A stretch of DNA of 64,000 nucleotides, from the IMG/VR virus record IMGVR_UViG_3300031994_000064, positions 18,984 through 82,983 of that record, one strand, 5' to 3'. The position numbers and the translations under genes were made by a program. The DNA is from a virus. Its lineage: Duplodnaviria; Caudoviricetes. Every line of letters starts with the position of its first letter. Positions within the stretch are counted from its first letter, which is position 1. Shown one piece after another: positions 1 through 60,501 of the stretch. Under the pieces are notes generated by a model, which saw nothing but the letters and a program-made list of their open reading frames with translations, was not told where the DNA came from and did no database searches.

Positions 1-93
1 ACCTTACGTGGTATGGGTAGAGGACGTGGAATGGTCGGCATTGGCTGACACGTTGAAGCGTCAATCTATTTAACAAAAAAAATAAAACAACGT
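1..93 (+). mobile_element. Right end of an IS200/IS605-type TnpB element (copy 1, truncated by window edge)
   Basis: Aligns by eye with the 3' ends of the TnpB elements at 6228-7498 and 58322-59582 (CTACGTGGTA..GTAGAGGAC..GTCGGC-loop-GCTGAC..ACGTCAATCTATTT), then A-rich tract ending CAACGT at 93. Confidence 0.85.
2..73 (+). CDS. tnpB: C-terminal end of a TnpB (partial)
   Basis: Frame reads PYVVWVEDVEWSALADTLKRQSI*, nearly identical to the C-terminus of the TnpB at 58367-59560. Confidence 0.75.
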   Translation, partial: PYVVWVEDVEWSALADTLKRQSI

Positions 94-2647: not shown

Positions 2648-2654
2648 TTCGCAA

Positions 2655-2935
2655 ATAAAACGTCGCGCTGACTGACGTGCGAAGCGGGTTAGCCAAAGCC
2701 CCTGTCAGCAATAGGGAGCTACGTTGCGGGAGAATGAAACAATAGGCACTTCGGGGCGGTCGCCCTAACCCCGAACTCTGCGGACAGTGGTTAAAAAAAG
2801 CGAAAGCGACGGTGCTGCTGCCAAGCAAACCTCCCGACAACATTGGCGAAGGGCGCACAACGCGGGCAACCGCGACTTATACCGAAAAGGTATCACGGGC
2901 AACGCAGACGAACTGCGGAAACGATTAAAACATTG
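2655..2935 (+). ncRNA. IscB omegaRNA (HEARO-like), boundaries approximate
   Basis: Characteristic segments CTACGTT..ATAGGCACTTCGGG..CCCGAACTCTGCG..GGTTAAA..AAACC..AACATTGGCGAAGGG directly upstream of iscB. Confidence 0.8.
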
Positions 2936-2939
2936 AACT

Positions 2940-4178
2940 ATGGTGTATGTTTTAGACAAAGACGGCAGACCTTTGATGCCGACAAAGCGACACAGAAAAG
3001 TCAGACGGCTTCTTCGTGACGGTCTTGCTGTTGTCGTGAGACGAACACCGTTCACCATCAGACTTCTGTTTGACACGACCCATTACAAGCAGAATGTCAC
3101 TCTTGGAATTGATGCAGGGTCTAAACACGTAGGTGTCAGCGCATCAACGAAAAACGAAGAACTCTTCAGTTCAGAGGTATTGCTACGCAATGATATTGTG
3201 AATTTATTAAGTACGAGACGCGAGGCACGCAGAACAAGAAGAAGCAGAAAATTACGTCACAGAGCTGCAAGATTCAACAACAGACGAAAAGAAGATGGAT
3301 GGCTTGCTCCGTCTGTAATGCAGAAGGTTGACAGCCATATCAAGATTGCGAACCTTGTATGCTCAATTCTGCCTATTGATACAATTGTGATAGAGACAGC
3401 GCAGTTTGATACGCAGAAAATCAAAAATCCAGATATTAGCGGAGAAGAGTATCATCACGGAGAACAAGAAGGCTTTTGGAACGTGCGCGAATATGTTTTG
3501 TGGCGAGACGGTCACGTTTGCCAACACTGCAAAGGCAAAAGCGGCGACAAGATTTTGAACGTGCATCATCTTGAAAGCCGAAAGACGGGCGGCGACAGTC
3601 CAAACAATCTCATAACGCTTTGCGAAACGTGTCACAAATCATATCACAAAGGCGAGATTGAACTAAAATTCAAACACCGTTCAAATTCTTTGCGCGACGC
3701 GGCGTTTATGAATGTTATGCGGTGGCGCGTGTATGAATTGATGAAAAAGATGTTTGCGGACAAGACCGTGAAGATTACTTATGGCTATCAGACAAAGCGC
3801 AAGCGCATTGAAAACGTAATAGAAAAGACGCATTGCGCGGACGCTTTTTGCATTGCTGGTAATTTAACTGCAAGACGCACAGACAGACTTTATAAAGGTC
3901 GTTTTGTCGCACGTCACGCGAGAAGCCTTCACGTGTTTGTGCCAAAGAAAGGCGGAGTACGCAGAAGCACTATTGCAAACCATTGGATAGGGAAAAACAG
4001 ATTGCAACGGTTTGATACGGTTCGATACAACGGTGCTGATTGTTTTATTTCTGGAAGCTCAAACGGAATACCGTTTTTGCGTGATGCTGATTGGAAAAAA
4101 GTTACAAAAACATCAATAGTAAATGCAAAATATGTCAAATTTATGTCTCGTAAGCATAGTTCTTTGTTGATTTTGTAA
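2940..4178 (+). CDS. iscB: IscB RNA-guided endonuclease
   Basis: PLMP motif, RuvC-I GIDAG, Arg-rich bridge helix RRTRRSR, RuvC-II IETA, HNH with Cys pairs, RuvC-III HCADA. Confidence 0.95.
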   Translation: MVYVLDKDGRPLMPTKRHRKVRRLLRDGLAVVVRRTPFTIRLLFDTTHYKQNVTLGIDAGSKHVGVSASTKNEELFSSEVLLRNDIVNLLSTRREARRTRRSRKLRHRAARFNNRRKEDGWLAPSVMQKVDSHIKIANLVCSILPIDTIVIETAQFDTQKIKNPDISGEEYHHGEQEGFWNVREYVLWRDGHVCQHCKGKSGDKILNVHHLESRKTGGDSPNNLITLCETCHKSYHKGEIELKFKHRSNSLRDAAFMNVMRWRVYELMKKMFADKTVKITYGYQTKRKRIENVIEKTHCADAFCIAGNLTARRTDRLYKGRFVARHARSLHVFVPKKGGVRRSTIANHWIGKNRLQRFDTVRYNGADCFISGSSNGIPFLRDADWKKVTKTSIVNAKYVKFMSRKHSSLLIL

Positions 4179-4212
4179 TATAATAAAATTTAGTAATATA
4201 ACCTTTAATATT

Positions 4213-4671
4213 ATGTGCATTATGAGTTGGTTCAACAAAAAACAAAACAAGCAGAGCAAGTGGCACAACACCCCTTGCGAGTACAACGGCATCAAATTCG
4301 ACTCCCACAAGGAGCGCGACCGTTACATCTTTCTCAAGTCTTTGGAAGACAAAGGCGTTATCAGCGACTTGAAACGGCAAGTCAGATACACCGTCTGCCC
4401 AGCTGTCTATGGAGAGCGTGAGGTGCAGCTCAAGACAAAGACCAAGATTGAGAAATACACGCGCCAAATCGCCTCGTACTACTATGCGGATTTTACCTAT
4501 ATGTTAAACGGCGAACTTGTCGTTGAGGACATAAAAGGAGCGGAAGGTACTGAAACAGAGGTATTTAGGCTAAAAGCCAAACTGATGTTGGCTCACAACG
4601 GAATCGAAGTTAAAAAAGTTTATAACCCTACGGAATGGAATCACGTGAACTACGGAAAGACCCCGAGATAA
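4213..4671 (+). CDS. DUF1064-like putative endonuclease (start may be 4222)
   Basis: YNGIKFDSHKE, YYADFTY, VVEDIKG PD-(D/E)xK-like motifs. Confidence 0.8.
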   Translation: MCIMSWFNKKQNKQSKWHNTPCEYNGIKFDSHKERDRYIFLKSLEDKGVISDLKRQVRYTVCPAVYGEREVQLKTKTKIEKYTRQIASYYYADFTYMLNGELVVEDIKGAEGTETEVFRLKAKLMLAHNGIEVKKVYNPTEWNHVNYGKTPR

Positions 4672-4958
4672 CCGGCATCGCAGAGGCGATAGCATCGCAG
4701 TTCGGCTACAAGTTCGAGAATCTTCTTGAAAAAGGCAACAGCAACCACCTCACATCGGCGAGGAACTTCGCGTATTATATCCTGCACTACGACTACGGGG
4801 TATCTCTCAACGACCTATGCGCAATGTTCCAACGCTCGAACAGGGAGGTCTGTTACCGCATTAAGAAAGTGCGCGACAAACACGAGAAAGAAAACGCTTT
4901 CAGACTGCGTTGCGAAAGCATAAAGAAAAAACTTGAAGCATCGCTGTCGGAAGAATAG
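4635..4958 (+). CDS. Small helix-turn-helix protein (DnaA C-terminal-like)
   Basis: ARNFAYYIL..SLNDLCAMFQRS pattern. Confidence 0.55.
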   Translation: MESRELRKDPEITGIAEAIASQFGYKFENLLEKGNSNHLTSARNFAYYILHYDYGVSLNDLCAMFQRSNREVCYRIKKVRDKHEKENAFRLRCESIKKKLEASLSEE

Positions 4959-4968
4959 TAAAAAATCG

Positions 4969-4976
4969 TATTTTTG
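4969..4976 (+). promoter_or_regulatory. Bacteroidota -7 promoter box for the tRNA-Met
   Basis: TATTTTTG matches TAnnTTTG, 16 nt before the tRNA. Confidence 0.65.
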
Positions 4977-4992
4977 CCGCGTGAAAGACGAT

Positions 4993-5066
4993 GGCGGGGT
5001 GGCGCAGATGGTAGCGCGTGAGAATCATAGTCTCAAGGTCAGTGTGTTCAAGTCCACTCCCCGCTA
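4993..5066 (+). tRNA. tRNA with CAT anticodon (Met-like), atypical
   Basis: Acceptor GGCGGGG/CCCCGCT, D-arm GCGC/GCGC, anticodon stem TGAGA/TCTCA with loop ATCATAG, T-loop TTCAAGT with bulged T-stem. Confidence 0.82.
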
Positions 5067-5137
5067 CAAACCATGCGGATTGAAACCATACCATATTTGG
5101 TGATTTTTTTGGATTTATTTAGTGAATTGTGTGAAGA

Positions 5138-5163
5138 AGGGCGACTGTTAATTCAGCCGCCCT
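5138..5163. terminator. Probable terminator hairpin at convergent junction
   Basis: AGGGCGACTG/CAGCCGCCCT stem between converging transcription units. Confidence 0.6.
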
Positions 5164-5220
5164 CTCTTCTTCTAACTAAAACACCTAAAAATTAAAAATT
5201 ATGGAAAAAAACAACACTGC

Positions 5221-5787
5221 TCATTTCCCAATGAGCAGGTTTCTCTTTATAGCCATCGTGTCGCCGGTGCAGCCGCTTATGGCAATCGCTTTCACACGCC
5301 TTTTGCCGAACAAGCATTTGCGCTTCTCTTTGTACAAAGAAACAAGAATCTCGTCTTGAGCTGTAAACCCGCTTATTTCAAGCGTATCGTCAATGATTTG
5401 ACCATCTATACTATAACAATCGGTTTGAACGCAAAAATCGGCTTTGTGGGCTTTTCTGACGGTATCGTAAACATACACCAATGTGTCGCGGTAAACAGTC
5501 GTGTCGTGAACGTAATAAGTGACCTCGACAATGTTCTCCACATCACGAGGCTTTATGCCGTGCTCTTTCAGCGTGGCGACCTCCTTGCTGAAATAGTCTT
5601 TCAGCTCTTGAACGTCAATCGTCTGCTGCCGAGAGTGGTCTTTGCTTAACTCGATGTCGTAGTTTTCCTTGAGCCTCCGTTTTTCATCGCCCTGCTTTTT
5701 AAGGCACACCGCCATTATCACAATCGCAGCCACCATCAGCACAAAGATGGCAATCTTCGCTACCGTTATCCAAATGTTTTTTGTCAT
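5221..5787 (-). CDS. Membrane-anchored coiled-coil protein, spanin (Rz)-like
   Basis: N-terminal TM helix then soluble domain; last gene of lysis cassette. Confidence 0.5.
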   Translation of the reverse strand: MTKNIWITVAKIAIFVLMVAAIVIMAVCLKKQGDEKRRLKENYDIELSKDHSRQQTIDVQELKDYFSKEVATLKEHGIKPRDVENIVEVTYYVHDTTVYRDTLVYVYDTVRKAHKADFCVQTDCYSIDGQIIDDTLEISGFTAQDEILVSLYKEKRKCLFGKRRVKAIAISGCTGDTMAIKRNLLIGK

Positions 5788-5932
5788 CTTTTTTGATTTT
5801 CTTTGTTTTTCTTATACAAACCCCGTATTGCTCCTCGAAATAAAGCGCAATCACATCGTAGAACATATACACCGCAAGCGCGACAATCGCCGCGATAAAA
5901 AGAAATTGCACGATAATTGACAAAAATTTCAT
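5699..5932 (-). CDS. Small membrane protein
   Basis: Hydrophobic N-terminal helix, charged and Cys-rich tail; overlaps next gene by 89 nt. Confidence 0.45.
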   Translation of the reverse strand: MKFLSIIVQFLFIAAIVALAVYMFYDVIALYFEEQYGVCIRKTKKIKKDDKKHLDNGSEDCHLCADGGCDCDNGGVP

Positions 5933-5938
5933 ATAAAT

Positions 5939-6229
5939 TTATCTTTGTGTTTCAATCTTTATTCCGAGTTTAAGCGCGATGAAATGCTCAAGTTTCGCAC
6001 CATGAGAGGCTTTCCACCCTTTGAGCATATAGATGCCGTCGCAATTGACGAGCAAAGGAATCACTGTCTGCATACATTTCTTCCAAGACCATGACACATT
6101 GCAGTGCTTTGTAGGGTTCACGGGTTCGTCTCCGCGAGAATACAAGAACTCTTCTGCTTTTGCGAAATTGTCCATCGCCTGCTCATAGGGCAAACCGCTG
6201 ACTTGACCTGCAATATAAATTTTACTCAC
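5939..6229 (-). CDS. DUF4406-like protein (GTG start)
   Basis: KIYIAGQVSG..CDGIYMLKGWKASHGAKLE pattern. Confidence 0.8.
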   Translation of the reverse strand: MSKIYIAGQVSGLPYEQAMDNFAKAEEFLYSRGDEPVNPTKHCNVSWSWKKCMQTVIPLLVNCDGIYMLKGWKASHGAKLEHFIALKLGIKIETQR

Positions 6230-6244
6230 GTGATTTCTCCTTTC

Positions 6245-7453
6245 TTATTTTGTTAATAATGAAATAGATTGACGTTTCATCGTGTCAGCCAATTCCGACC
6301 ACTCCGCGTCCTCTACCCCTACCACGTAGGGTGATTTATTGTTGTTTGTTAAATTCTGTTCTTGCAAACCGAATCTTAGAATGTTCACGGCGGCGAGCAA
6401 GTCCCTGTCATTGTCGCGACCGCATGACGGGCACACCCATCTTCGCTGTGACAGCTTCAAGTCTTTGTAAACGCTACCGCACAAGCACATCTTTGAACTC
6501 GGCTCGAAACGCCCGATGCGCACAAGGTTTTTGCCGTACCAATCGCATTTATATTGCAACTGTCTGAAAAATTCAGACCACGCAACAGAGCTTATGCTTT
6601 TGGCGAGGCAATGGTTTTTAAGCATTCCGTCCACATTCAAGTCCTCAACGACTATGGTTTGGTTCTCACGCACAATCTTCGATGTTACTTGGTGAATAAA
6701 ATTGGTACGCTTGTTTCTTATGCGCTCATGCTGTTTTGCGACTGCAAGTTTTGCGCGTTCTCTGCGTTTGCTGCCTTTCTGCTTTTTCGCAAGCCGTCTT
6801 TGCAGCACTTTGAGACGCTTTTCCTCTTTTTCAAGAAATTTAGGATTCTCGAACACTTGACCGTTTGAAAGCACGGCAAAATCCTTGATGCCAACGTCTA
6901 TACCAACCGATGTATTAAAATCAATCATCGGCTTTTCGGGCATCGGCTTGCCGTCATCAACGGTTATAGATATATAGTATTTGTTAGTCGGCGATTTAGA
7001 AACGGTGCAAGTACCAATTTTTCCTACAAAAGTTCTGTCGCAGGCAAACTTCACCTTGCCGACTTTTGGCATCTTAACACGCTTATTATCAAAATCAACG
7101 AATACGCAGTCAACAAACTGAAACGAGTTTCTGTTTCTTTTCTTTGACTTGAATTTCGGGAAACCTTTCTTTTCTCTGAAAAAGCGGGTAAACGCGGCAT
7201 CCATATTGCGTATTGACGATTGCAGAGATTGATTTGAAACCTCGGACAGCCATTCTGTCTCTTCTTGTTTTTTAAGGCTTGTGAGTTCTTTTGCGATAGA
7301 CACATAGCTGAGCCTTTCGCCGCTGTTTTGGTATGTTTCAATCCTTCTCTGCAACGCCCAATTATAGACATATCGGCAGCAGCCAAACGATTTCTCAAAA
7401 AAAGTCGCTTGTTCCGCTGTTGGGTATAGCCTATATTTGTACGATTTAATCAT
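6245..7453 (-). CDS. tnpB: TnpB RNA-guided endonuclease
   Basis: YKYRLYPT HTH, RuvC GIDVG / VVEDL / DRDLLAA, Zn-finger CLCG..CPSCG; ATG at 7453 preferred over TTG 7483. Confidence 0.95.
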   Translation of the reverse strand: MIKSYKYRLYPTAEQATFFEKSFGCCRYVYNWALQRRIETYQNSGERLSYVSIAKELTSLKKQEETEWLSEVSNQSLQSSIRNMDAAFTRFFREKKGFPKFKSKKRNRNSFQFVDCVFVDFDNKRVKMPKVGKVKFACDRTFVGKIGTCTVSKSPTNKYYISITVDDGKPMPEKPMIDFNTSVGIDVGIKDFAVLSNGQVFENPKFLEKEEKRLKVLQRRLAKKQKGSKRRERAKLAVAKQHERIRNKRTNFIHQVTSKIVRENQTIVVEDLNVDGMLKNHCLAKSISSVAWSEFFRQLQYKCDWYGKNLVRIGRFEPSSKMCLCGSVYKDLKLSQRRWVCPSCGRDNDRDLLAAVNILRFGLQEQNLTNNNKSPYVVGVEDAEWSELADTMKRQSISLLTK

Positions 7454-7457
7454 GCCG

Positions 7458-7465
7458 CAAATATA
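7458..7465 (-). promoter_or_regulatory. -7 promoter box of tnpB
   Basis: TATATTTG, 4 nt before ATG. Confidence 0.7.
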
Positions 7466-7591
7466 CAAAAAAATTAAATACAAACGGGCTTAATTTTTAT
7501 AAAAGCTTTTTTTTAAAAATATCAAAATAGTTGTATCAACATATTGATTTTTCATTTATAAAAAATCATGAGCCTTTGCCATACTATTTTT

Positions 7592-8122
7592 CTATTTCAC
7601 TTCGGTTTTCTTTTCAGCACAAGCAGCTTTGCGAGATTTCGGAACTTGCTTTTTGCGGCGACGCTTCCATTCGGCAAAGTCTCCGTTGAGAAACCCGCTT
7701 ACTTGCCCAACCTCCTCGGTGAGCGACGCTACTTGGTTGTCCATCTTTGTGACGCGCTTGTCAACCGATGTGACGCGTTTGTCCAAATTGTCAACCTTGT
7801 CGTTTAGGTTTCCCACAAGACCGCGCAATTCATTCATTGTCTCCTCTTGCTTTGCCCAGTACTCGTCACGCTCTTTGTTGCTGTTGAGCATCATCTCCTG
7901 CATCCTCTGCGTTATTTCAAGGGTGCTTTCAAGATACTTTTTGCCGAGGTCTATCTGCTTGTCGTCGTTGTCGATTTCCTTGCCCTCAACGTCTGCGTTT
8001 GACGATTTTACCTCGTTTCTTTTCAACTGCCTGTTCTCGCGGAAGAAAAACACACCCGTAATTAGTCCTCCGATGCCCGTGCCGCCGAACAAAAACCCCA
8101 AAATCAAATTCCAATCCATCAT
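7592..8122 (-). CDS. Holin-like membrane protein with coiled-coil tail
   Basis: Single N-terminal TM segment, heptad-rich C-terminus; follows endolysin. Confidence 0.5.
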   Translation of the reverse strand: MMDWNLILGFLFGGTGIGGLITGVFFFRENRQLKRNEVKSSNADVEGKEIDNDDKQIDLGKKYLESTLEITQRMQEMMLNSNKERDEYWAKQEETMNELRGLVGNLNDKVDNLDKRVTSVDKRVTKMDNQVASLTEEVGQVSGFLNGDFAEWKRRRKKQVPKSRKAACAEKKTEVK

Positions 8123-8123
8123 T

Positions 8124-8612
8124 CTACTTTTTTACAATTATTTTATTCTCAACTTTGACTTTGTTATAAGTCTTGAAATCTTTCGTCCATAACAATTTCA
8201 TACGGTTACCAGTGCTTCTGTATGCAACGTGAATCCATTGAGCCGAGACAATCTCGCCGTTGGTGTTGAACTTCGCGCCCTCGATGATGCACTCGTCATA
8301 AGGTATTTTCAGTTCAAGCAAAGATTTGACTATAAGGATGTTGTCCGTGCTGTCGTTACCAATATGAATGTCCGCCGCACAAGCTATTTTGTGGTTCGAT
8401 GTCGGGCTGCCACCAACAGCTTTGTTCAAAGCGTCAGGTCTGTACCCGCTCGTCACCCTTATCGGTCTTCCGAGTTTAACCCGCAATGGGTCAAGCAGTT
8501 TCTCGATAAGCGCGACAATGTTTCTGTACTCTGCCGTGCCTTGTTTCGGCACTTGCACAAGTTTTGGATGAGACCCCGACACACACAACTCTTGAACCGA
8601 AAAATACAACAT
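8124..8612 (-). CDS. Endolysin, peptidase M15A family
   Basis: PIRVTSGYR, SNHKIACAADI, WIHV zinc-peptidase motifs. Confidence 0.9.
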   Translation of the reverse strand: MLYFSVQELCVSGSHPKLVQVPKQGTAEYRNIVALIEKLLDPLRVKLGRPIRVTSGYRPDALNKAVGGSPTSNHKIACAADIHIGNDSTDNILIVKSLLELKIPYDECIIEGAKFNTNGEIVSAQWIHVAYRSTGNRMKLLWTKDFKTYNKVKVENKIIVKK

Positions 8613-8635
8613 CCTTACAAATCTTTTTCTCGTTG

Positions 8636-8643
8636 CAAAAATA
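8636..8643 (-). promoter_or_regulatory. -7 promoter box of lysis cassette
   Basis: TATTTTTG upstream of endolysin. Confidence 0.6.
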
Positions 8644-8666
8644 CGATTTTTATGATAACAAAAATA

Positions 8667-11600
8667 TTATGACTCCAAAATTGCGTGTACTTTCAGATAG
8701 CTGCCTCCGCCGTTGCCTTGGTAACCTCCGGAATGCACAACGCTGTCGAGCAACAAGTTAATTGACGTGGTTTGCGCCGCCACGATTTTCAGCTGCTGCA
8801 ACATCGGGTTGCTGTTGTTGTCTATCGTCAGACCGTTAAGCAGGTTCTGCAACAGCTGGTTGTTGTCGGCAACGTAAAACCTCACGCTGTTCAAATACGC
8901 GGCGAGAATGTCTGCGGTTTCCTCGGTCATGCCTTGCAAACCTGCTTGCAGACCCTCAAGACCGCCACCGATGCCAGTGACACTCTGAATCGCGTTAACG
9001 GCAGCCTGCATCTCTTCGTCGGCTTGCACAGCCAAATCGTGGTATTGGTTAATCCAGTCGTTTAGAGCGTCAAGGTTGCCCATAACACCTCCCTCAGTGC
9101 CGAGAATCTTGTCCAAACCGCTTAAAAAGTTATCGCCGAAATACTTTGTCATAATGTTGTTCATCAAATGTTTTTTGACAATATTCTCAAAAAATTCTTC
9201 AAACGAATCTTCAAGACCGCTAAGACCGTCACCTGTCTCTTTGAAAGCCTCGTACCAAGCGTCAGTCCACTCTTCAACGGTTGATTTCATGTTCGCCGCG
9301 CTGCCGAAACCTCCGAGAGCCTCGTAGAAATTCTCTATGCCCTCTTGCATCTCCTTGTTTAAGCTGTCTATTTGGTTTTGGTAATCATCAATGACGGCTT
9401 GGTCGGACTTTTTCTTCGCTTCTTCGGCTTCTTTCATGTCTTCAAGAGTGGCAATGGCAAGTTCACGTGTCCTTATAAGAGCAGCGTCAAGTTGGCGCAA
9501 TTCTTCTTCGGCATAAGAGCTTTCAAATGCTTCTGACAAGTCTTCGGCAGTTTTTTCAAGCTTGTCAAGGCTTTTTTGCAGTTTCTCTATTTCTGCTTGT
9601 TTGTAAGAATCGTGAAGCCCCGAAATCGCTTTTATTCCAGACATAATCAGCGTAATAGCCTCGGCAATAAGACCAATCCAGCCAGCCGCCGCATTGATAG
9701 CCGTTTCAGCGGTTGTAATAGACGCAACCATCGCAGGTAACATCTGAAGCGCACGGGATATTGTGTCAAACATTTCATCTCCGAACTCTTTCCACGCTTG
9801 ACCTATTGTGTCAGTGCCGACACCTATGCTTTCAAGACCTTCGTAAATAGAGTCAAAAGACTCTTTTGCCTTTTGAGTCCAATCACCGAGCAATTCGCCC
9901 ATTGCCTTCACCGCTTTTGCCCAATCGTCAAGTCTCTTTTTTGTGTCTGCGAGCTGGTTTGCTTGACTTGTTACTTTTTTTAAGCTTTCGTTAGCTTTGT
10001 CAAGATTGATTTGCAAATCTTCAAATTCCGCGAACGGGTCTCCGCCGTTTTCTTCAAATTTCTTACGAGCAGAAAACAATTTTCCGATAGATTTTGCAAG
10101 TTTGTCGTACTTCAAGTATTCTTGTTCGTTTTCTGACAAACCAAGTCTGTCTTCTTCTCCGCTCAATATTTTTGCAAGACGGTCGTTGCTTATTTTATTT
10201 GCGGCTTCTTCTCTCTTTTTTTCAACGTCTTTTAATGTGTTTTCAAGTTCTTCTGAATTGTATATATCTCTCCAATCAACGCCTTGCTCTTCAAGCATTT
10301 TTTTCGCCTCGTCGCGTTCTTTCCCAGCACCGAGCAATGTTTCTTTTAAGTCAACATCTCTTTTTGCTTCATACTGCTTTTGGCGGGCAATGTTTACTGC
10401 TTCGTCAAGTGTTTTTCTGAAATTCTTGATGGGGGCGTTCAAATCTTTTTCGCCTAAAACTTCATTGATAAGATTTCTTGTCTTCAAATCTTTAGTTGCC
10501 GATTTATATTCTTTTATAGAATCAGCCAAAGATTTGAACGGGTTTCTCTTAATCATCTCGTCACGCAGTTTCTGCATTTGCTCTGTGATGGCTTTCAAAT
10601 CCGACGGAGATAAGTTTTTCAAAGAAGATTTCAGCTCTTCCAAATGTCTCAACATTGACTCTATCGCTTTGTTTGACACACGCTCCAAATCTTCAAACAC
10701 CTCAATGTACATGTCTGAACTTGTGAACGTCTTCCAATCTATCTCGTCAAGTTTTTTCTGCGTCTCTTTCTGCAAGTTGTCAAGTATGCGCATCGTTTCG
10801 TTTTCGTCAAACGGCAAAGCGTAAATTTCGGCACGCTGACGCATATATTCCAACTCAACCTTTGCACGCTCGCCATATTCTTCACGCAGATATTTGACGT
10901 ATTTCTTTGCCATCTCAAGGTTCGCCTTGTCATTGATTTCGACAATCTTGCGCATAAATTGGCGGTACTCCTTCTCCATATTGCGACCGACAAACTCTTC
11001 TTTCATGGATTCGAGCTTCTTTTCAAGCGTCAGCAAATCCTTCGTGTCAATGTTGAACAGCTTGCCAACCTCTTCAGCGTCAACACCGAGTTTTCCAAGC
11101 TCGATGGTCAGATTGTAGTCGTCAAACATCTTCTGCACCTGCGCCTTGAGGCGTTCGTCCTCGCGGGCTTTCAATTCGAGTTCGGCTTCGAGTTTTATTT
11201 GTCCGACAGCCTCTCCCCATGCACGCTGCAACTCTTCTTTTTCTTTCTTTGTCAAATCCTTCGCGCTGTCAATAAGACCTTTGACAATGTTTTCGGCTTC
11301 TACAGTGCCTTCTTTCGTTGTGAAATCAATGCTTCTTAACGTGTTTTGGAAAGCCTTCTTGAACTTTGTCGGCATCGCGCCGAATTTCGCCTCAAACGAT
11401 GACAGAATGCGGTTTGTCGCGCCTGCCCATTTTGCGGAATCTTTCTCGTTGAAATTCTTTCTCAACGTGTCGAACTCCCTGTTCAGCTCACGCACAAAGT
11501 CAATCATAGACTGATATTCGGACTTCATGCTTTTTGCCCTTGTAGAAGAACTTTTATCTTCTGGCCATTCATAAAGCATCCTGTCACCAAAAATCTTTGC

Positions 11601-20290: not shown

Positions 20291-20974
20291 CTACTCGCCT
20301 TGTTCGGCTTTCAAGGCTTCTCCTGCGGCTTTGATGGTTTCCTTGATTTTTTCAAGGTGGCTTGCCGAGCCTGCGCCGCGAGGTGTCAAGTCGTCGTCTT
20401 CGGGCATTTCCGAGAAGAACTCGTTGTACATCTCAAGGTAGCTTTCGGCTTCCGCTTCGATGTCGGTGTTCTCGTCAATCTTCGCCTTGTCGAGCATTGA
20501 TTTCACCCATTTGTCGTTCTTGACACCTTTCTTCTTGATTTCGGCGGCAAGCTGTTCGCGTTTCTGACCAATGGTCTTTTTCGTTTCTTCGGCTTGCTTT
20601 TCGTCCTCAAGCTTTTTCAAGCGTTCTTCCAACTTGGCGATGGTCTCGTCTTTCTTGCCGTCATCGTTGCCGACCTCGTCTTTTTTTTTCTTTTTCGCAG
20701 GCTCTTCGATTTGCTTTTTCAGCTCCTCGATTTGCTTGTTAAAATTCTCGGCGAGGGTCGAATTGGCTTTGTTAATGTGACCTTTCTGCGTTTCAAGCAT
20801 TTTAACGGCTTTTTCCGCAAAAGCGTCAAGTTCGATTTCGCTGTCTTCACCAACAAGTTCGCATAGGGTCTCTACGTGTTCCTTGATGGTTCGTTCCCAA
20901 TCGGCGATTTTTTCTACCTTTTTTGAGAACATTGCCGTGATTTTTTCACGGGCTTCCTCTTTTGTGAATTTCAC
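20291..20974 (-). CDS. Capsid scaffolding protein (GTG start)
   Basis: Highly charged coiled-coil protein heading the head operon. Confidence 0.7.
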   Translation of the reverse strand: MKFTKEEAREKITAMFSKKVEKIADWERTIKEHVETLCELVGEDSEIELDAFAEKAVKMLETQKGHINKANSTLAENFNKQIEELKKQIEEPAKKKKKDEVGNDDGKKDETIAKLEERLKKLEDEKQAEETKKTIGQKREQLAAEIKKKGVKNDKWVKSMLDKAKIDENTDIEAEAESYLEMYNEFFSEMPEDDDLTPRGAGSASHLEKIKETIKAAGEALKAEQGE

Positions 20975-21090
20975 GTTGTTCTATTTTTTTTAAGTTAAAT
21001 AGATTGACGCTTCATCGTATCAACCAATGTTGACTACTCCACGTCCTCTACCCCTACCACGTAGGGTGATTTAAGTTAGTTTATGTTTTT
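20973..21090 (-). mobile_element. Orphan TnpB right-end/omegaRNA module without tnpB (copy 3)
   Basis: About 75 nt (20998-21072) homologous to the tnpB 3' ends, then A-rich tract ending CAACGT; left boundary uncertain (21082 or 21090). Confidence 0.8.
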
Positions 21091-21129
21091 ATCTTTTTTC
21101 AATTTCCTGTTCGTTTTGGATTAACGCGG

Positions 21130-21225: not shown

Positions 21226-22830
21226 ATGTCCGAGATAAAAATCATACGACCGCAAGCTGGATTTCAGGAGAAGTTCTGCCGTACCAATGTGGATTTCTGC
21301 ATTGGCGGCGGCTTATTGAACTCTGGCAAGTCGTATGCTTCCGTTTTGGCTTGCGCACAAGCGGTTTCAGACCCGAATTTCCGCGCTTTGTACTTGCGTA
21401 ACAACCTCGGCGACTTGAAGGCAGGCGGCGGTATCGCCGATACGTTCAGAGAGATTTTCGGCGAAAGCATAAAGATTGTCGAGTCCGGCGACCCGCACAT
21501 CAATTTCCCAAGCGGGGCGGTCATAGACCTCACGCACGTCGCCAACCAAAGCAGAGAAGCAATACGACAGCGTTTCAAAGGACGTCAGTACGATTTGATT
21601 GTGTTCGACGAAGGAACGGGTTACACTTGGGAATGTCTTACCGAGATTATGACACGTAACCGTGGCAAGGGAAGCTGGACGGGTCACGTGCTTATGACCA
21701 CCAACCCCGAAAAAGACCATTGGATTCGCACGTTCATAGACTGGTACATCGGCGAAGACGGCTACATCAGAGAAGACCGAAACGGTGTGGTGCGCTATTT
21801 CTACATCAACGGCGAAACCGTCAACGATGTTGTGTGGGGCGACACGAAAGAGGATGTATTCAACAAGTGCCGTGTCGAAATATCGCAGCGTCTGCGCAAA
21901 ATGAACGGCAAGAAAGAGATTTTCAAGTGGCAAGACCTCATAAAGTCTTTCACATTCTATCTTGGCAGTATGTCCGAGAACGTAGCGTCCATCAGCGGCA
22001 ATAGCGGTTATGCGGCATCAGTGGCGATGGTCGGCGGTCGTGCCGCCCAGCAATACCTTGAGGGCAACTGGAACGTCAGCACCAAAGGCGACCTAAACTC
22101 ACCGATACCGCAGGCACTCGCAGAATCCGTGTTTGACAACGACCCAATGACCAACGGCGACCGATGGATTACCGCAGACCTCGCCGATACTGGGACAGAC
22201 AACTTCATTGCGCTTGTATGGGACGGCTTTCACGTCTTTGACATGGTTGTAGCAGGAAGAACAACGCCAAGAGAAAATGCGGATATTCTCAAAAACCTGT
22301 GCAGCAAACACAAGATACCAGAAACAAATGTGATTTTCGACGCGACTGGAGGCGTTTATCTGAAAGACTACATGCCTACCGCGATTGCATATTACTCTAA
22401 CGCTTCTCCGATGGGCGTGTACATGAACCGCTATATGAAGCTGAAAGACGAATGCTACGGGCGTTTGTGCACTCTGATAAAAGAACACAGCATTTCTTTC
22501 TCCGAAGACCTCGCCAACAAGATATACTCGCATCCGCTTTTGAGCGACAAGATAACCATCAAGGAAGAGTTCAAAGAGGAATGCGCGTGCGTGAAGTTCA
22601 AGGACGACACCGGCATACGCAGGTCGCTGATTACGAAACGAGAGATGAGAAAGCTGCTCGGCAAGTTCCGTTCGCCCGACTTGTTAGACCCTTGCGCGAT
22701 GCGGATGATGCCCATATTGAGATACGCGAACGGCGAGGAACTGATAAAGACAAGCGCGTACCGAAAAGACGATGAAGATGAAATGGATGGACTTACTGTC
22801 AACGTGTTCGACGATACAACTTGGTGTTAA
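21226..22830 (+). CDS. terL: Terminase large subunit
   Basis: Walker A NSGKS, Walker B VFDEG, MTTNP, nuclease ITADLA and SPDLLD. Confidence 0.92.
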   Translation: MSEIKIIRPQAGFQEKFCRTNVDFCIGGGLLNSGKSYASVLACAQAVSDPNFRALYLRNNLGDLKAGGGIADTFREIFGESIKIVESGDPHINFPSGAVIDLTHVANQSREAIRQRFKGRQYDLIVFDEGTGYTWECLTEIMTRNRGKGSWTGHVLMTTNPEKDHWIRTFIDWYIGEDGYIREDRNGVVRYFYINGETVNDVVWGDTKEDVFNKCRVEISQRLRKMNGKKEIFKWQDLIKSFTFYLGSMSENVASISGNSGYAASVAMVGGRAAQQYLEGNWNVSTKGDLNSPIPQALAESVFDNDPMTNGDRWITADLADTGTDNFIALVWDGFHVFDMVVAGRTTPRENADILKNLCSKHKIPETNVIFDATGGVYLKDYMPTAIAYYSNASPMGVYMNRYMKLKDECYGRLCTLIKEHSISFSEDLANKIYSHPLLSDKITIKEEFKEECACVKFKDDTGIRRSLITKREMRKLLGKFRSPDLLDPCAMRMMPILRYANGEELIKTSAYRKDDEDEMDGLTVNVFDDTTWC

Positions 22831-41098: not shown

Positions 41099-41647
41099 TT
41101 AACTTAAAACTTTCGTGATTATCGGCAAGGCTGCGTATTCAACAGCCTGCAACTGGTTAGGTATCTGCGAATCGTACACGTAAGGGCAATGACCAATCAG
41201 GTTGTTGAACTTTAGCTCAATCTCGATGTATTTCATGCCCTTGTAGTTGTCTTCTTTGACCTCGACCGCGCTTATGAGCGTCATCACAGCCATCTTGCGG
41301 CGAACGTTGTCCCAAAAGACGACTGGCAGTGTGCCGGAGACAAGCCCTATCACGGTGTTCATATCGTCATTGCCATTGGCTATTGACGGGTCTCTTCTTA
41401 CCACAAGGTCTAAGGTTATGGTTGTCGCCTCTCTCGTGATTACTTCGGGGAAGTCGGCTCTCACCGTATCACTGTCGGCGTATGTCTCTGTGTATATGTT
41501 CTTCACTTTTCCGAAATCCTCAAGACCAGTGCATTTTCGGTAAAGCAGCGTTCTGCCAGTCCCGAGAACGTAGTTGTTGATGTCAGTCCAAGTCCAAGAA
41601 CTGTTTGCGTATTTTCCTATATATACGTGTACGTCTTGTATTTCCAC
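41099..41647 (-). CDS. Distal-tail-like protein (GTG start)
   Basis: KVKNIYTETYADSD..REATTITLDL pattern recalls distal tail proteins; recognition only. Confidence 0.4.
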   Translation of the reverse strand: MEIQDVHVYIGKYANSSWTWTDINNYVLGTGRTLLYRKCTGLEDFGKVKNIYTETYADSDTVRADFPEVITREATTITLDLVVRRDPSIANGNDDMNTVIGLVSGTLPVVFWDNVRRKMAVMTLISAVEVKEDNYKGMKYIEIELKFNNLIGHCPYVYDSQIPNQLQAVEYAALPIITKVLS

Positions 41648-41670
41648 GTGATTTCTATTTTAATTGTTAA

Positions 41671-41985
41671 TCAGTATTTTCGTTTCGACACGGGTCTTAG
41701 CCTTCCTATAAACCTTGTCGGCGGGCAGCCCATCTCTTTTCTTCTCTTGAAATTCTCCTCGTTGTATATCGGCTTGAGTATGTGAGAAATCCTCTCTGTC
41801 GGTTTGCTCAACTGCGATGCGTAGAACGACAGATAGCAGTAGTTCTTGTCGGTCTTGTATATGTTCGCAGACTGCAATGGCAGGAACATTCCGAGTTCCT
41901 GCTTGCAAGTGTATGGGTTCTCGTCCCACAGCAGACGCGCACCTTCGAGGTTGCTCAACGATATTGTGACTAAAAAATCCTGCAC
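41671..41985 (-). CDS. Hypothetical protein
   Basis: ORF downstream of promoter at 42007. Confidence 0.5.
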   Translation of the reverse strand: MQDFLVTISLSNLEGARLLWDENPYTCKQELGMFLPLQSANIYKTDKNYCYLSFYASQLSKPTERISHILKPIYNEENFKRRKEMGCPPTRFIGRLRPVSKRKY

Positions 41986-42006
41986 AACAATTCAAATTTT
42001 CGGTTG

Positions 42007-52238: not shown

Positions 52239-52388
52239 AAGCCAATCAAATTCTTGCGAAAAAACGAAGAGAATCGGGCTGGTTTGCCATAACAGAATTT
52301 GCCATAAATTTTTCAACCGTCTGATTCTCTTTTTGTTATGAAAGAAAATTTATTTTTATAAAAATGTTCAGCGTATTGGTATTTTTTG

Positions 52389-52396
52389 TATCTTTG
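52389..52396 (+). promoter_or_regulatory. -7 promoter box
   Basis: TATCTTTG. Confidence 0.65.
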
Positions 52397-55799: not shown

Positions 55800-55846
55800 G
55801 CGAAAAAATATTTTTATAAAAGTGTTGAACGTATAGAAATATTTTG

Positions 55847-55854
55847 TATCTTTG
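55847..55854 (+). promoter_or_regulatory. -7 box of replication operon, followed by leader hairpin 55880-55929
   Basis: TATCTTTG; TCGGTCGGG/CCCGACCGA stem. Confidence 0.65.
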
Positions 55855-57077: not shown

Positions 57078-58275
57078 GAGAAAAACAACCAAAAATCGCA
57101 ATGGAAGCTATCAGAGAGCAGATAGAGAAAACAGACGGTGTTGAATGCAGATTGAAACCGATGTTCAAACCTCAAGTGCTGATACAGCTTTATGACAAAT
57201 ACAAAACAGAAATTGATATTTACGAATATGCGTCGCCAATATTCAATGTTTTCACAGGGGGTGAATCTATAAGCACGGTAATTTTTCATTTGTCTGTGTT
57301 GCCAAAAGAACTTAAACCTCTTATGATAGACAGAATGATGTGCAACGCTGTTATCGTCACTCCTTGGTACAGTCACACGATTTTAGGCGCGATGGCAGAA
57401 GTTAGAGAGGCAAAATTGTTGATTTATGTTGAAAACCACGATGCGGAAAAATTGATTATAAAACACATAAAGCAATGAATAAACGTATCAAAGCAAAAAG
57501 AAAAACACGTCTGACAGACAACGAGGTCAGAGAGGTGGCGAAAATGCAGCAAGAGATTGACGCGATGTACTATATGCTGTTCCACCTCGCGGCTTTCGCA
57601 AGAGGTGACGGAGATGGCTACGCGCTGCTTGCTTCATCAGACGATGCCGTAAACCACAGCGTCAGAACACTTTACAATTTCATCAAAGAACACAGAGAAA
57701 CCAAAAACGAGTAAAAATGAAAGAAATCAAGGTACAATTAAAGCACGCACAGATAGATGCGCCGCTCGAATGCACGATGAAGTTGAACGACGAGTTTTTC
57801 TTTGTCGATAACTACCATTTTGCGCCAATCATCATACACGAAGAAAGATACATTCCTGTAGAGATGAAATACTACAATTTGATGTGCGGATTTTTGCGAA
57901 CACATCACAAAGAATGGCAAGAGTACATCAAAAAAGCGAAATTCGACCCTACAAACAACAAGGTTTACGACCTAATCAGAGCAAACAACGTGAGAGAATG
58001 GCAAAATAAAGAATCAAAAACTAAATGATATGTTACTTAAAATAACAACAGACGCAACGTGCGTTCCAAAAAAAACAGCGTTAAAACTTGAAACGTACGG
58101 CTTTGACGTTGTATATAAGAAAGACGAATACCGACACAAGAGATATTTTGTCAATATAGACAATATTGAGCAAATTATCAACATCAGAAATATTCTTCAA
58201 TGCGGTATAGAAATTATTGACACCGTTGGAGAAGGGAAAAACATACTGAACATCGAAAGAACAGACTTGTATTAG
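57074..58275 (+). other. Four small hypothetical genes (57074-57478, 57475-57714, 57717-58028, 58030-58275)
   Basis: Abutting co-oriented ORFs. Confidence 0.55.
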
Positions 58276-58354
58276 AAAATGAGTGAAAGAATCAGAGAGG
58301 AAAAGAAATGACAATTTTCATAAAAATTAAAACCAATCGTATTTAATAATTTTG

Positions 58355-58362
58355 TATCTTTG
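58355..58362 (+). promoter_or_regulatory. -7 promoter box of tnpB
   Basis: TATCTTTG, 4 nt before ATG. Confidence 0.7.
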
Positions 58363-58366
58363 CGGC

Positions 58367-59560
58367 ATGATTAAAGCGTACAAATATAGGCTATACCCGA
58401 CAGCGGAGCAAACGACTTTCTTTGAGAAATCGTTTGGCTGCTGCCGATATGTCTATAATTGGGCGTTGCAGAGAAGAATTGAAACATACCAAAACAGCGG
58501 CGAAAGACTAAGTTATGTGTCTATCGCAAAAGAACTCACAAGCCTCAAAAAACAAGAGGAGACAGAATGGCTGTCCGAGGTTTCAACACAATCTCTGCAA
58601 TCGTCAATACGCAATATGGATGCCGCGTTTACCCGCTTTTTCAGAGAAAAGAAAGGTTTCCCGAAATTCAAGTCAAAGAAAAGAAACAAAAGCTCGTTTC
58701 AGTTTGTTCAACAAGTGTATGTTGATTTTGAAAGCAAACGCATTCAAATGCCAAAAGTAGGCAAAGTGAAGTTTGCCTGCGATAGAACATTTGTTGGCAA
58801 AATCGGCACGTGTACCGTGTCTAAATCACCGACTAACAAATACTATATATCCATAACCGTTGATGACGGCGAACCAATGCCAGAGAAGCCGATGATTGAA
58901 TTTAACACGTCGGTTGGTATTGATGTCGGCATCAAGGATTTTGCCGTTATTTCAAACGGCCAAGTGTTCGATAATCCTAAATTTCTTGAAAAATCGGAAA
59001 AGCGTCTAAAAGTGCTGCAAAGACGGCTTGCGAAAAAGAAGAAAGGCAGCAAACGCAGAGAACGCGCAAAACTTGCAGTCGCAAAACAGCATGAGCGCAT
59101 AAGAAACAAGCGTACCAATTTTATTCACCAAGTAACATCGAAGATTGTGCGTGAGAACCAAACCATAGTCGTAGAGGACTTGAATGTGGACGGTATGCTT
59201 AAAAACCATTGCCTTGCCAAAAGCATAAGTTCTGTTGCGTGGTATGAATTTTTCAGACAGTTGCAGTATAAATGCGATTGGTACGGAAAAAACCTTGTGC
59301 GCATTGGGCGTTTCGAGCCGAGTTCAAAGATGTGTTTATGTGGCAATGTTTACAAGGATTTGAAACTGTCACAACGAAGATGGGTGTGCCCGTCTTGCGG
59401 TCGCGACAATGACAGGGACTTACTTGCCGCAGTGAACATTCTACGATTCGGCTTGCAGGAACAGAATTTAATAAACAACAATAAATCACCCTACGTGGTA
59501 GGGGTAGAGGACGCGGAGTGGTCGGCACTGGCCGACACGTTGAAACGTCAATCTATTTAA
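58367..59560 (+). CDS. tnpB: TnpB RNA-guided endonuclease
   Basis: Same motifs as copy 2, RuvC D/E/D intact; near-identical protein. Confidence 0.95.
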   Translation: MIKAYKYRLYPTAEQTTFFEKSFGCCRYVYNWALQRRIETYQNSGERLSYVSIAKELTSLKKQEETEWLSEVSTQSLQSSIRNMDAAFTRFFREKKGFPKFKSKKRNKSSFQFVQQVYVDFESKRIQMPKVGKVKFACDRTFVGKIGTCTVSKSPTNKYYISITVDDGEPMPEKPMIEFNTSVGIDVGIKDFAVISNGQVFDNPKFLEKSEKRLKVLQRRLAKKKKGSKRRERAKLAVAKQHERIRNKRTNFIHQVTSKIVRENQTIVVEDLNVDGMLKNHCLAKSISSVAWYEFFRQLQYKCDWYGKNLVRIGRFEPSSKMCLCGNVYKDLKLSQRRWVCPSCGRDNDRDLLAAVNILRFGLQEQNLINNNKSPYVVGVEDAEWSALADTLKRQSI

Positions 59561-59580
59561 TCTTAAAAAATAGAAATCAC

Positions 59581-60501
59581 GTGACGAAAAGTACACAAAA
59601 ATACGGTTTGCCATATATGGGCAGCAAATCGACCATCGCGGAATGGGTCATAAGCCATCTTCCGAAAGCGGACACGCTTGTCGATGCTTTTGCGGGCGGT
59701 TGCGCACTAACGCACGCGGCAATGCTGTCACGTAAGTTCAAACGCATAATAGCAAACGACATCACAGACGCGCCGAAACTGTTCATTGACGCTTGCAACG
59801 GCTTATACAAAGACGAGAAACGGTGGGTTTCACGCGAATATTTTGAAGCAAACAAAGACAACGACCCGTTTGTCCGTCTGATTTGGTCTTTCGGCAACAA
59901 CCAGAGATACTACATCTACGCGAAAGACATCGAAGAGCGCAAACACGCCATCCACAACGCCGTACACGACCGAAAAACGGCTCAACTGTCGGCAATAGGG
60001 CTGATAGACCAAGAAGACGCAGAACCTATTGAAAAACGGCTTGAAAGCATTGACGACACGATGCAAAGATACCAGCTTGTCAAGCGCACCATCATCAAAC
60101 ACTCGAAAAACATAGACGCACGGTGCGAGACACTTGAGCGCACCGCGAGGCTGCAACACTTGGAGCGCACCGAGAGGCTGCAACACTTGGAAATCACACA
60201 AAAAGACTATAGAGATGTCGAGATACCGAAAGGAAATACAATCATATTGGCGGATATTCCTTACCGCAAAACAGCCAAATACCTCAACGACTTTGACCAC
60301 GAGGCATTCTACGAATGGGCGTTGGCGCAGAAACACCCAGTGTTCGTCTGCGAGTACGACATGCCGACACCGCCGTTCACGCTTATAGACCAAACATTAA
60401 AAAACAGCCAACTTTCGGCGACCACAACAAAAAAAGCGACCGAAAAGCTGTTTGCTTGCAATTTAACCGACAAAACAGAAGGTCAGATGAAACTTTTTTA
60501 G
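59581..60501 (+). CDS. DNA adenine methyltransferase, Dam/D12-like (GTG start)
   Basis: PYMGSKS, VDAFAGG SAM-binding motif, LADIPY catalytic variant. Confidence 0.85.
   Translation: MTKSTQKYGLPYMGSKSTIAEWVISHLPKADTLVDAFAGGCALTHAAMLSRKFKRIIANDITDAPKLFIDACNGLYKDEKRWVSREYFEANKDNDPFVRLIWSFGNNQRYYIYAKDIEERKHAIHNAVHDRKTAQLSAIGLIDQEDAEPIEKRLESIDDTMQRYQLVKRTIIKHSKNIDARCETLERTARLQHLERTERLQHLEITQKDYRDVEIPKGNTIILADIPYRKTAKYLNDFDHEAFYEWALAQKHPVFVCEYDMPTPPFTLIDQTLKNSQLSATTTKKATEKLFACNLTDKTEGQMKLF
60136..60189 (+). repeat. 27-nt tandem duplication (ERTARLQHL / ERTERLQHL)
   Basis: Two units with one mismatch. Confidence 0.9.

Follow-up and report, generated by a model that had tools for sequence, protein, structure and literature searches.

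The stretch of DNA analysed here, subsequently designated the window, comprises 64,000 nucleotides (nt) and covers bases 18984-82983 of an IMG/VR virus record of 82,983 bp that is complete and carries direct terminal repeats. The carrier is a Bacteroidota phage; the Bacteroidota-type promoter motif TTTGTATNTTTG occurs nine times in the window as against 0.09 expected, and 88% of the phage genome is coding. On the minus strand, at the 5' end of a gene encoding a DUF4406 protein, we found a tnpB-carrying insertion (copy A, 6228-7498) that appears to have replaced the ATG start codon of this gene by GTG. Judged by its sequence, copy A belongs to the TnpB-only (IS1341-type) elements of the IS200/IS605 family. 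It is considered non-autonomous because the phage has no Y1 transposase: a search of the complete 82,983-bp genome for the Y1 HUH transposase TnpA (PF01797) gave no match, while the positive controls were detected.

Along the minus strand, the layout of the site is ...AAAAAAAAGCTTTTAT, followed by the element from AAAAATTAAGCC through tnpB to TCTATTTCATTATTAACAAAATAAGAAAGGAGAAATCACGT, and then GAGTAAAATTTATATTGCAGGT. GCTTTTAT occupies 7506-7499, the element starts with AAAAATTAA at 7498 and ends with ...GGAGAAATCACGT at 6228, and GAGTAAAATTTATATTGCAGGT continues from 6227. In-silico removal of 6228-7498 gives ...TTTTAT/GAGTAAA (slashes mark junctions), i.e. ATG-S-K-I-Y-I-A-G. In the present sequence, a GTG at 6229-6227 opens an open reading frame (ORF) of 96 amino acids (aa), with GT provided by the element and G by the flank. 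A preliminary description of this locus had reported the split codon, a longer and different spacer near the right end of this copy, read-through of tnpB to a later stop and preservation of the terminus; its coordinates and sequence statements all proved exact.

Relatives lacking tnpB were found via the DUF4406 protein at eight loci (designated by L numbers), seven of which are distinct, as L006 and L111 represent the same contig. Six of the eight start with ATG (L005, L006/L111, L108, L109 and L112), which supports the earlier proposal that an ancestral ATG was split. L110 has a GTG of its own, located inside its native GTGAGTAA stop/start overlap, and the start of L113 was not read. The empty site reads ...AAAGCTGAT/GAGTAAAATTTATATCGCC in L005 (92% aa identity), ...TCCTAT/GAGTAAAATTTACATTGCAGG in L108 and ...GCCGAT/GAGTAAATTTTATATTGCAGG in L109, and the window is collinear with the empty-site genes from codon 2 onward. 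In the empty sites, the stop codon of the upstream gene overlaps the ATG (ATGAGTAA). Persistence of GGAGAAATCACGTG at homologous loci without tnpB had been suggested as an observation that could overturn the proposal; GGAGAAATCACGTG is present in none of them, so the proposal is not overturned. An exact search of viral contigs for the predicted empty junction TTTATGAGTAAAATTTATAT yielded two unrelated chance matches.

A second full copy of the element (copy B) resides in the same window (Table 1). Homology of the two copies is bounded by TTTYAT/AAAAATTAA on the left and ...ATCACGT/GA on the right, with one ambiguous base, a T that may be counted to the flank or to the end. The stretch from TCTATTT to the end measures 34 nt in A and 24 nt in B and differs in sequence, whereas GAAATCACGT is kept in both. 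TnpB of copy A ends with ...RQSISLLTK and is thereby five residues longer than that of copy B, which ends with ...RQSI. The flanks of A are unlike those of B and the two tnpB genes differ by 0.33 synonymous substitutions per site (dS), in line with the earlier view of a second independent insertion.

A fuzzy search detected five right ends in the 83-kb phage, four of which are followed by G and lie at offset 0 of genes of at least 96 aa. Beside those of the full copies, the five ends comprise two solo right ends and a 25-nt scar. The scar additionally contains the final codons and the stop codon of ORF 41660-41995, located upstream, and the 227-aa ORF started by the solo end at 20973 adjoins a 534-aa gene at 21226-22830. 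The empty state in relatives is ATG at all four GTG-forming sites: the copy B site reads GCGATAT/GACGAAAAGC (ATG) in L132, the site of the solo end at 20973 reads CAATAT/GAAATTTAC (ATG) in L134, and the scar site reads TGATTTAT/GGAGATT in L135, where the ATG follows a perfect TTTAT. Presence of the element is polymorphic among close relatives at each site, and the filled state at 20973 is common to L104-L106. By rough gene calls, the 556 TTYAT sites include only 2 that fall on a first-ATG start. Computed on the same crude calls and for uniform site use, the chance probability of finding at least three of five ends at starts is about 5e-7 if all TTYAT sites are considered and about 5e-5 if only intergenic and start sites are admitted. 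The left flank of copy B (58275-58316) lacks a small ORF of about 270 nt that is present between the same neighbours in L132 (1745-1998); in L132, this small ORF and the Dam gene both start with ATGACGA.

Could the GTG simply be unused, with the DUF4406 gene silenced or dispensable and the juxtaposition without consequence? GTG is a weaker start than ATG, and the gene is small and accessory. Its ORF is intact, however, and the ratio of nonsynonymous to synonymous substitution rates (dN/dS) relative to the empty-site orthologues is 0.04-0.075 at a dS of about 0.9. Since the Pfam domain extends from residue 3 and no further in-frame ATG occurs before codon 19, past the conserved KIYIAG motif, GTG would be the only canonical start that keeps KIYIAG. 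Moreover, four genes show the exact juxtaposition, among them the large Dam gene and the 227-aa ORF, and its chance probability is at most 5e-5. A dead gene next to a coincidental GTG is therefore very improbable.

Table 1. Features of the tnpB locus, related element ends and neighbouring genes (window coordinates).
Feature	Coordinates	Strand	Basis or remark
TnpB element A, 1271 nt: left end, tnpB, omegaRNA/right end	6228-7498	-	homology limits vs copy B
Putative target/target-adjacent motif (TAM) TTTAT, directly 5' of left end	7499-7503	-	TTCAT at copy B, TTTAT at L023
Left end, A/T hairpin (AAAAATTAA...TTAATTTTT) plus promoter box TTTGTATATTTG at 7458-7469	7454-7498	-	Bacteroidota-type motif
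tnpB, 402 aa, intact	6245-7453	-	HTH_OrfB_IS605, OrfB_IS605 and Cas12f1-like_TNB domains
omegaRNA scaffold/right end, extending over the tnpB 3' end; subterminal hairpin followed by AAATCACGT	6228-6342	-	covariation
Predicted 20-nt guide GAGTAAAATTTATATTGCAG	6208-6227	-	inferred from TnpB biology; last base of GTG through codon 7
A/T-rich spacer, 93 nt, between stop of upstream gene and left end	7499-7591	-	about 7507-7566 shared with flank of L023 element
Copy B of element	58317-59582	+	92% nt identity to A; GT + G = GTG start of Dam-type methyltransferase gene
Solo right end/omegaRNA scaffold, ends AACAACGT	20973-21102	-	GTG start of 227-aa ORF 20291-20974
25-nt right-end scar	41646-41670	-	25/25 identity to L023 end; GTG of 182-aa ORF 41099-41647
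Solo right end, ends AAAACAACGT	1-93	+	begins 12-13 nt before window; 10 nt upstream of ATG of single-stranded DNA-binding protein (SSB) gene
DUF4406/nucleoside 2-deoxyribosyltransferase-like gene, 96 aa	5939-6229	-	DUF4406 domain, residues 3-92; phrog_355
Upstream gene, 176 aa, N-terminal transmembrane helix plus coiled coil	7592-8122	-	orthologue of gene overlapping the DUF4406 ATG in L005/L108/L109
Endolysin (Peptidase_M15_3)	8124-8612	-	domain match; phrog_894 endolysin

The domains of TnpB A were recognised with E values of 1e-21 (HTH_OrfB_IS605), 6e-28 (OrfB_IS605 RuvC) and 4e-19 (Zn-ribbon/TNB), and the protein matches the ISDra2 TnpB structures (8BF8, 8EXA and 8H1J) with E=1e-79. The RuvC motifs were located by alignment with the best match 9yyg, a TnpB-like nuclease designed by artificial intelligence: GIDVGIKDF, VVEDLN and NDRDLLAAVNI align with its GVDLGIKNF, AVEDLN and HDRDENAALNI. 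With the D, E and D of these motifs, which we take from general knowledge of TnpB to be the catalytic residues, copy A keeps an intact RuvC D-E-D set and is predicted to encode a nuclease rather than a TldR-like repressor. In the left end, the A/T hairpin folds with no advantage over shuffled sequence. The promoter box TTTGTATATTTG stops 4 nt ahead of the tnpB ATG, and this short distance implies that the tnpB mRNA would be near-leaderless. The box is found in both left ends, at 7458-7469 (minus strand) and 58351-58362 (plus strand); two ordinary phage promoters at 52344-52396 and 55802-55854 (plus strand) resemble the whole left end with 60-83% identity over 53 nt.

At the opposite end, an omegaRNA consensus derived from the last ~115 nt of 17 family members shows compensatory changes at 9 of 18 pairs. 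A 7-bp hairpin (CTATTT pairing with AAATAG) is positioned 9-10 nt from the tip, with z scores of -2.3 to -3.1, and this subterminal location is the one known from IS200/IS605 right ends; the hairpin of copy A is altered, but still foldable. Rfam searches at gathering and permissive thresholds gave no match to omegaRNA, HEARO or intron families. In particular, no group I intron family matched, and only ~45 nt separate the left boundary from the tnpB ATG. None of the full copies A, B and L023, the latter located in another phage, is flanked by direct repeats. The guide predicted in the preliminary description agrees with TnpB biology, in which the 16-20 nt that follow the right end on its 3' side serve as guide, and the predicted target of TnpB A would be TTTAT plus GAGTAAAATTTATATT. 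The pentamers 5' of the full copies A, B and L023 (TTTAT, TTCAT and TTTAT) are the TAMs that were determined experimentally for TnpB2 of ISGst2 from Geobacillus stearothermophilus (TTTAT) and for IscB of ISGst5 (TTCAT; bioRxiv 10.1101/2023.03.14.532601).

The terminal bases of the right end had been suggested to be under selection both as end of the element and as start codon. The first part of this idea held, as the tip is conserved as element end, but the start-codon role is not needed to explain this conservation. L023, the sole close copy from another phage (94% aa identity), has an identical GAAATCACGT, which lies there 12 nt upstream of an ATG and forms no start codon, and a CAACGT end lies 10 nt upstream of the SSB gene. 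In the clade with 61-72% identity, 12 of 14 loci end with ...TCACCT, L050 ends with ...CACTT and L025 with ...ACACCT. Presumably, the tip was conserved first as element end, that is as TnpA cleavage site and 3' end of the scaffold, and its role in the start codon looks like a consequence, with only GT-ended copies surviving on AT/G. Ends on a start codon account for 4 of 6 cases in the ...ACGT subclade versus 0 of 13 in the ...ACCT subclade (hand-computed Fisher p ~0.004). Selection on the start-codon role itself is suggested because the scar 41646-41670 and the solo end at 20973 outlast tnpB, these remnants being the only evidence that bears on it.

The same distribution may be read in a more active sense, namely that the right end evolved (C to G, ...ACGT, A-rich tail) as a portable initiation region and is actively directed to starts. 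The six independent ...ACGT ends are located 0, 0, 0, 0, 10 and 12 nt before a co-oriented start, whereas offset 0 is observed for none of the 13 ends of the ...ACCT clade. The clade lacks close cellular relatives, and the A-rich tract of the right-end tail coincides with an A-rich tract shared by the phage genes at -14 to -10. However, no known mechanism would let TnpA or TnpB recognise a start codon, the C/G change may have run in either direction, and the sample consists of six sites in two or three related phages. Further, 56% of the phage starts have T at -1, a bias that already renders TATG-type starts target-like. Active docking at start codons thus appears possible, yet rather doubtful. 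The AAGGAG of copy A (containing a GGAG resembling a Shine-Dalgarno sequence) was also considered as ribosome-binding site, but this is unsupported: GGAG-type motifs precede 9% of genes compared to 6% in the background. The right end of copy B has no such motif, and the GGAG of copy A is probably irrelevant.

On the left side, 7498 is only the position where the likeness of A and B ends. Copy A and the L023 element, which sits at another site, remain ~80% alike for a further 55-65 nt, up to ~7557-7566. A spacer hairpin folds at the same place in copy A and L023, and another TTTAT is found at 7562-7558. The 93-nt spacer between element and upstream gene is missing from every empty-site relative, and the upstream gene of the window ends early, at 7592, with a C-terminus that resembles the L112 variant. 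The spacer may be an extended left end, in which case the true end would be near 7557 and copy B would be 5'-truncated, or it may be co-mobilised flank, and the left boundary may lie at 7498 or at about 7557-7566. In both cases, TTTAT/G and hence ATG would remain after precise excision. A search of viral contigs for the shared left extension retrieved only L023 and coincidental coding matches.

The three tnpB copies A, B and L023 are equidistant, with a dS of 0.32-0.36 and dN/dS of 0.08-0.09, and the tnpB dS (0.33 for A/B) is below the host-gene dS of 0.85-0.93 of the carrier phages. Among cellular genomes, TnpB identity reaches at most 49%. By these sequence comparisons, tnpB forms a phage-resident lineage that moved among related phages, possibly with host TnpA acting in trans or through TnpB-driven homing.

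Carried to its end, the latter option describes an element that does not transpose, but serves homing or exclusion between phages: TnpB, with the initial 20 nt of conserved genes as guides, would cut the uninterrupted ATG allele of co-infecting relatives, whereupon the element and its flanks would be copied by recombination or the rival would be killed, and the solo right ends would act as extra guide genes. The absence of TnpA from the phage and the strong purifying selection on tnpB in three copies fit this scenario. So do the guides, which match the relatives' empty alleles with 1-2 mismatches at A, B and the solo sites; in case of copy A, this holds for L005, L108 and L109. The left flank of A is mosaic as after co-conversion, the upstream gene resembling L112 and the downstream gene L005/L108, and TnpA-independent spread of IS605 elements by TnpB has been discussed (PMC13565253). 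Against homing or exclusion, the empty alleles carry CTGAT, CCTAT, CCGAT, GATAT or AATAT instead of TTYAT, the only TTTAT is that of L135, whose target has diverged, and arrival of the element at four different genes is left unexplained. We therefore regard it as a tentative alternative. Both ideas may also be merged: a phage-restricted TnpB element whose right end is a portable start codon and leader would colonise AT/G sites, its guides would hit the conserved 5' ends of rivals' uninterrupted genes, and the outcome would be RNA-guided, transposase-independent homing or exclusion. As the scaffold ends inside the start codon of the downstream gene, scaffold-bound TnpB could even gate translation. 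This combined account strikes us as unlikely.

Taken together, we consider it probable that a TnpB-only element landed on the ATG of the DUF4406 gene and rebuilt it as GTG, and that the association with start codons arose by survivorship. In this model, the element would have inserted 3' of TTTAT in the orientation of the operon, bringing its own promoter, an intact TnpB and an omegaRNA that ends at the right end (...ATCACGT). This end abuts the G of the ancestral DUF4406 ATG, so that GT of the element plus G form GTG, and its A-rich tail would replace the native leader, such that the gene stays translatable. Precise excision would restore TTTAT/G... and thereby ATG. The guide of the omegaRNA would correspond to the gene's initial ~20 nt, counted from that G, and would specify the uninterrupted allele, as in RNA-guided homing. 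The association with starts would result from three steps: the target ends with AT, the end of the subclade is GT, and copies survive only in rare gaps or on AT/G. With a target ending in AT and an element ending in GT, AT/G would be the one harmless place for insertion inside a gene; and as loss of the end would kill the gene, solo ends and scars would persist after decay of tnpB.

Several observations weigh against this model. The left junction is not clean, as the spacer is missing from the empty sites and is partly shared with the L023 flank, and for this reason the AT at 7500-7499 cannot be shown to be original. At the TAM position, the empty A sites carry CTGAT, CCTAT or CCGAT rather than TTTAT, which reflects either a loose target rule or insertion in an unsampled lineage. 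The distance from the ...ACGT ends to a co-oriented start is 0-12 nt in all six cases, which is tighter than pure survivorship predicts, and the chance estimates given above depend on crude gene calls. Finally, neither a transposase partner nor a host was identified, the closest cellular TnpB sharing no more than 49% identity.

Comparison with characterised systems places the element next to ISGst2, with which it shares TnpB with a 3' omegaRNA, TTTAT 5' of the presumed left end (target and TAM in ISGst2), a predicted guide taken from the right flank, the apparent lack of target duplication and the expected role in re-cutting the empty site. Unlike ISGst2, it resides in a virus, TnpA is absent from the entire phage, the right end completes a start codon as GTG, and the TAM is putative here. 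The best natural structural relative is TnpB-omegaRNA of ISDra2 (8EXA, 8BF8 and 8H1J; E=1e-79 over residues 3-368), which is similar in domain order, RuvC D/E/D motifs and the overlap of the omegaRNA with the tnpB 3' end. ISDra2 differs in that it uses TTGAT, has a TnpA partner and is located on a bacterial chromosome, and the omegaRNA sequences are not alignable. IStrons, which combine a group I intron with an IS605/IS607 TnpB, likewise spare the interrupted gene, but restore it by RNA splicing (bioRxiv 10.1101/2023.11.20.567912). Here, no intron is present (left end of ~45 nt, Rfam silent), and the gene would be restored at translation initiation. The solo ends at 20973-21102 and 1-93, which consist of the scaffold only, resemble stand-alone omegaRNAs and palindrome-associated transposable elements (PATEs), i.e. 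gene-less IS200/IS605 derivatives; in contrast to PATEs, the solo ends and the 25-nt scar have been retained precisely at positions at which they provide a start codon or leader. The free-standing Seg/Mob homing endonuclease genes found in T4-like phages (review: PMC13565253) are comparable as selfish nuclease genes located between conserved phage genes, with polymorphic presence and mosaic flanks as from co-conversion, but recognition would be RNA-guided in the present case and the element has transposon ends. Full-text literature searches retrieved no report of a TnpB or IS605 element completing a start codon; the nearest published concepts are IStrons, with rescue by splicing, and transposon non-restorative homing.

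The surroundings had been addressed as a lysis cassette. Indeed, an endolysin gene and membrane-protein genes flank the site, with genes for small membrane proteins downstream of the DUF4406 gene, but the interrupted gene itself is nucleotide-metabolism-like. No terminator was detected between tnpB and the DUF4406 gene; the first terminator-like site on the minus strand is at 5238-5217. This distant site and the layout of the flanking genes indicate that the element is co-directional inside an operon. The endolysin comprises 162 aa in the window, whereas its orthologue in a related phage (L005:1929-3476) has 515 aa, owing to an insert of ~350 aa that ends with ...QGN/C, shows a weak LAGLIDADG_3 match and is, from its sequence, probably an intein with homing endonuclease. 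The window further contains an intact IscB of 412 aa with RRXRR and HNH domains (2940-4178, plus strand, within 2650-4178). It is preceded by a GC-rich, probably structured region of 280 nt, likely its omegaRNA, for which Rfam gave no match at gathering score. The phage accordingly carries both types of OMEGA nucleases, IscB and TnpB. Two tRNA genes (Rfam RF00005; 1808-1894 and 4993-5066, plus strand) are located beside the IscB/lysis region. Positions 4200-9200, searched at nucleotide level against the GenBank phage collection, had no related match.

TnpB elements, from which Cas12 descended, have been found mainly on bacterial chromosomes. To our knowledge, their persistence in viruses, in which nearly all bases are coding, has hardly been described. 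The locus represents a natural case with full comparative controls, i.e. sites with and without the element, solo ends and a scar, in which the carrier would be spared by completion of a split start codon and not by splicing as in IStrons. It illustrates how elements of this kind can persist in a phage genome with little room. Each predicted guide RNA falls on a conserved 5' gene end, and RNA-guided homing between phages would be testable with natural allele pairs. For annotation, GTG starts are to be expected after ...ATCACGT in these phages, and the downstream genes should not be annotated as truncated.

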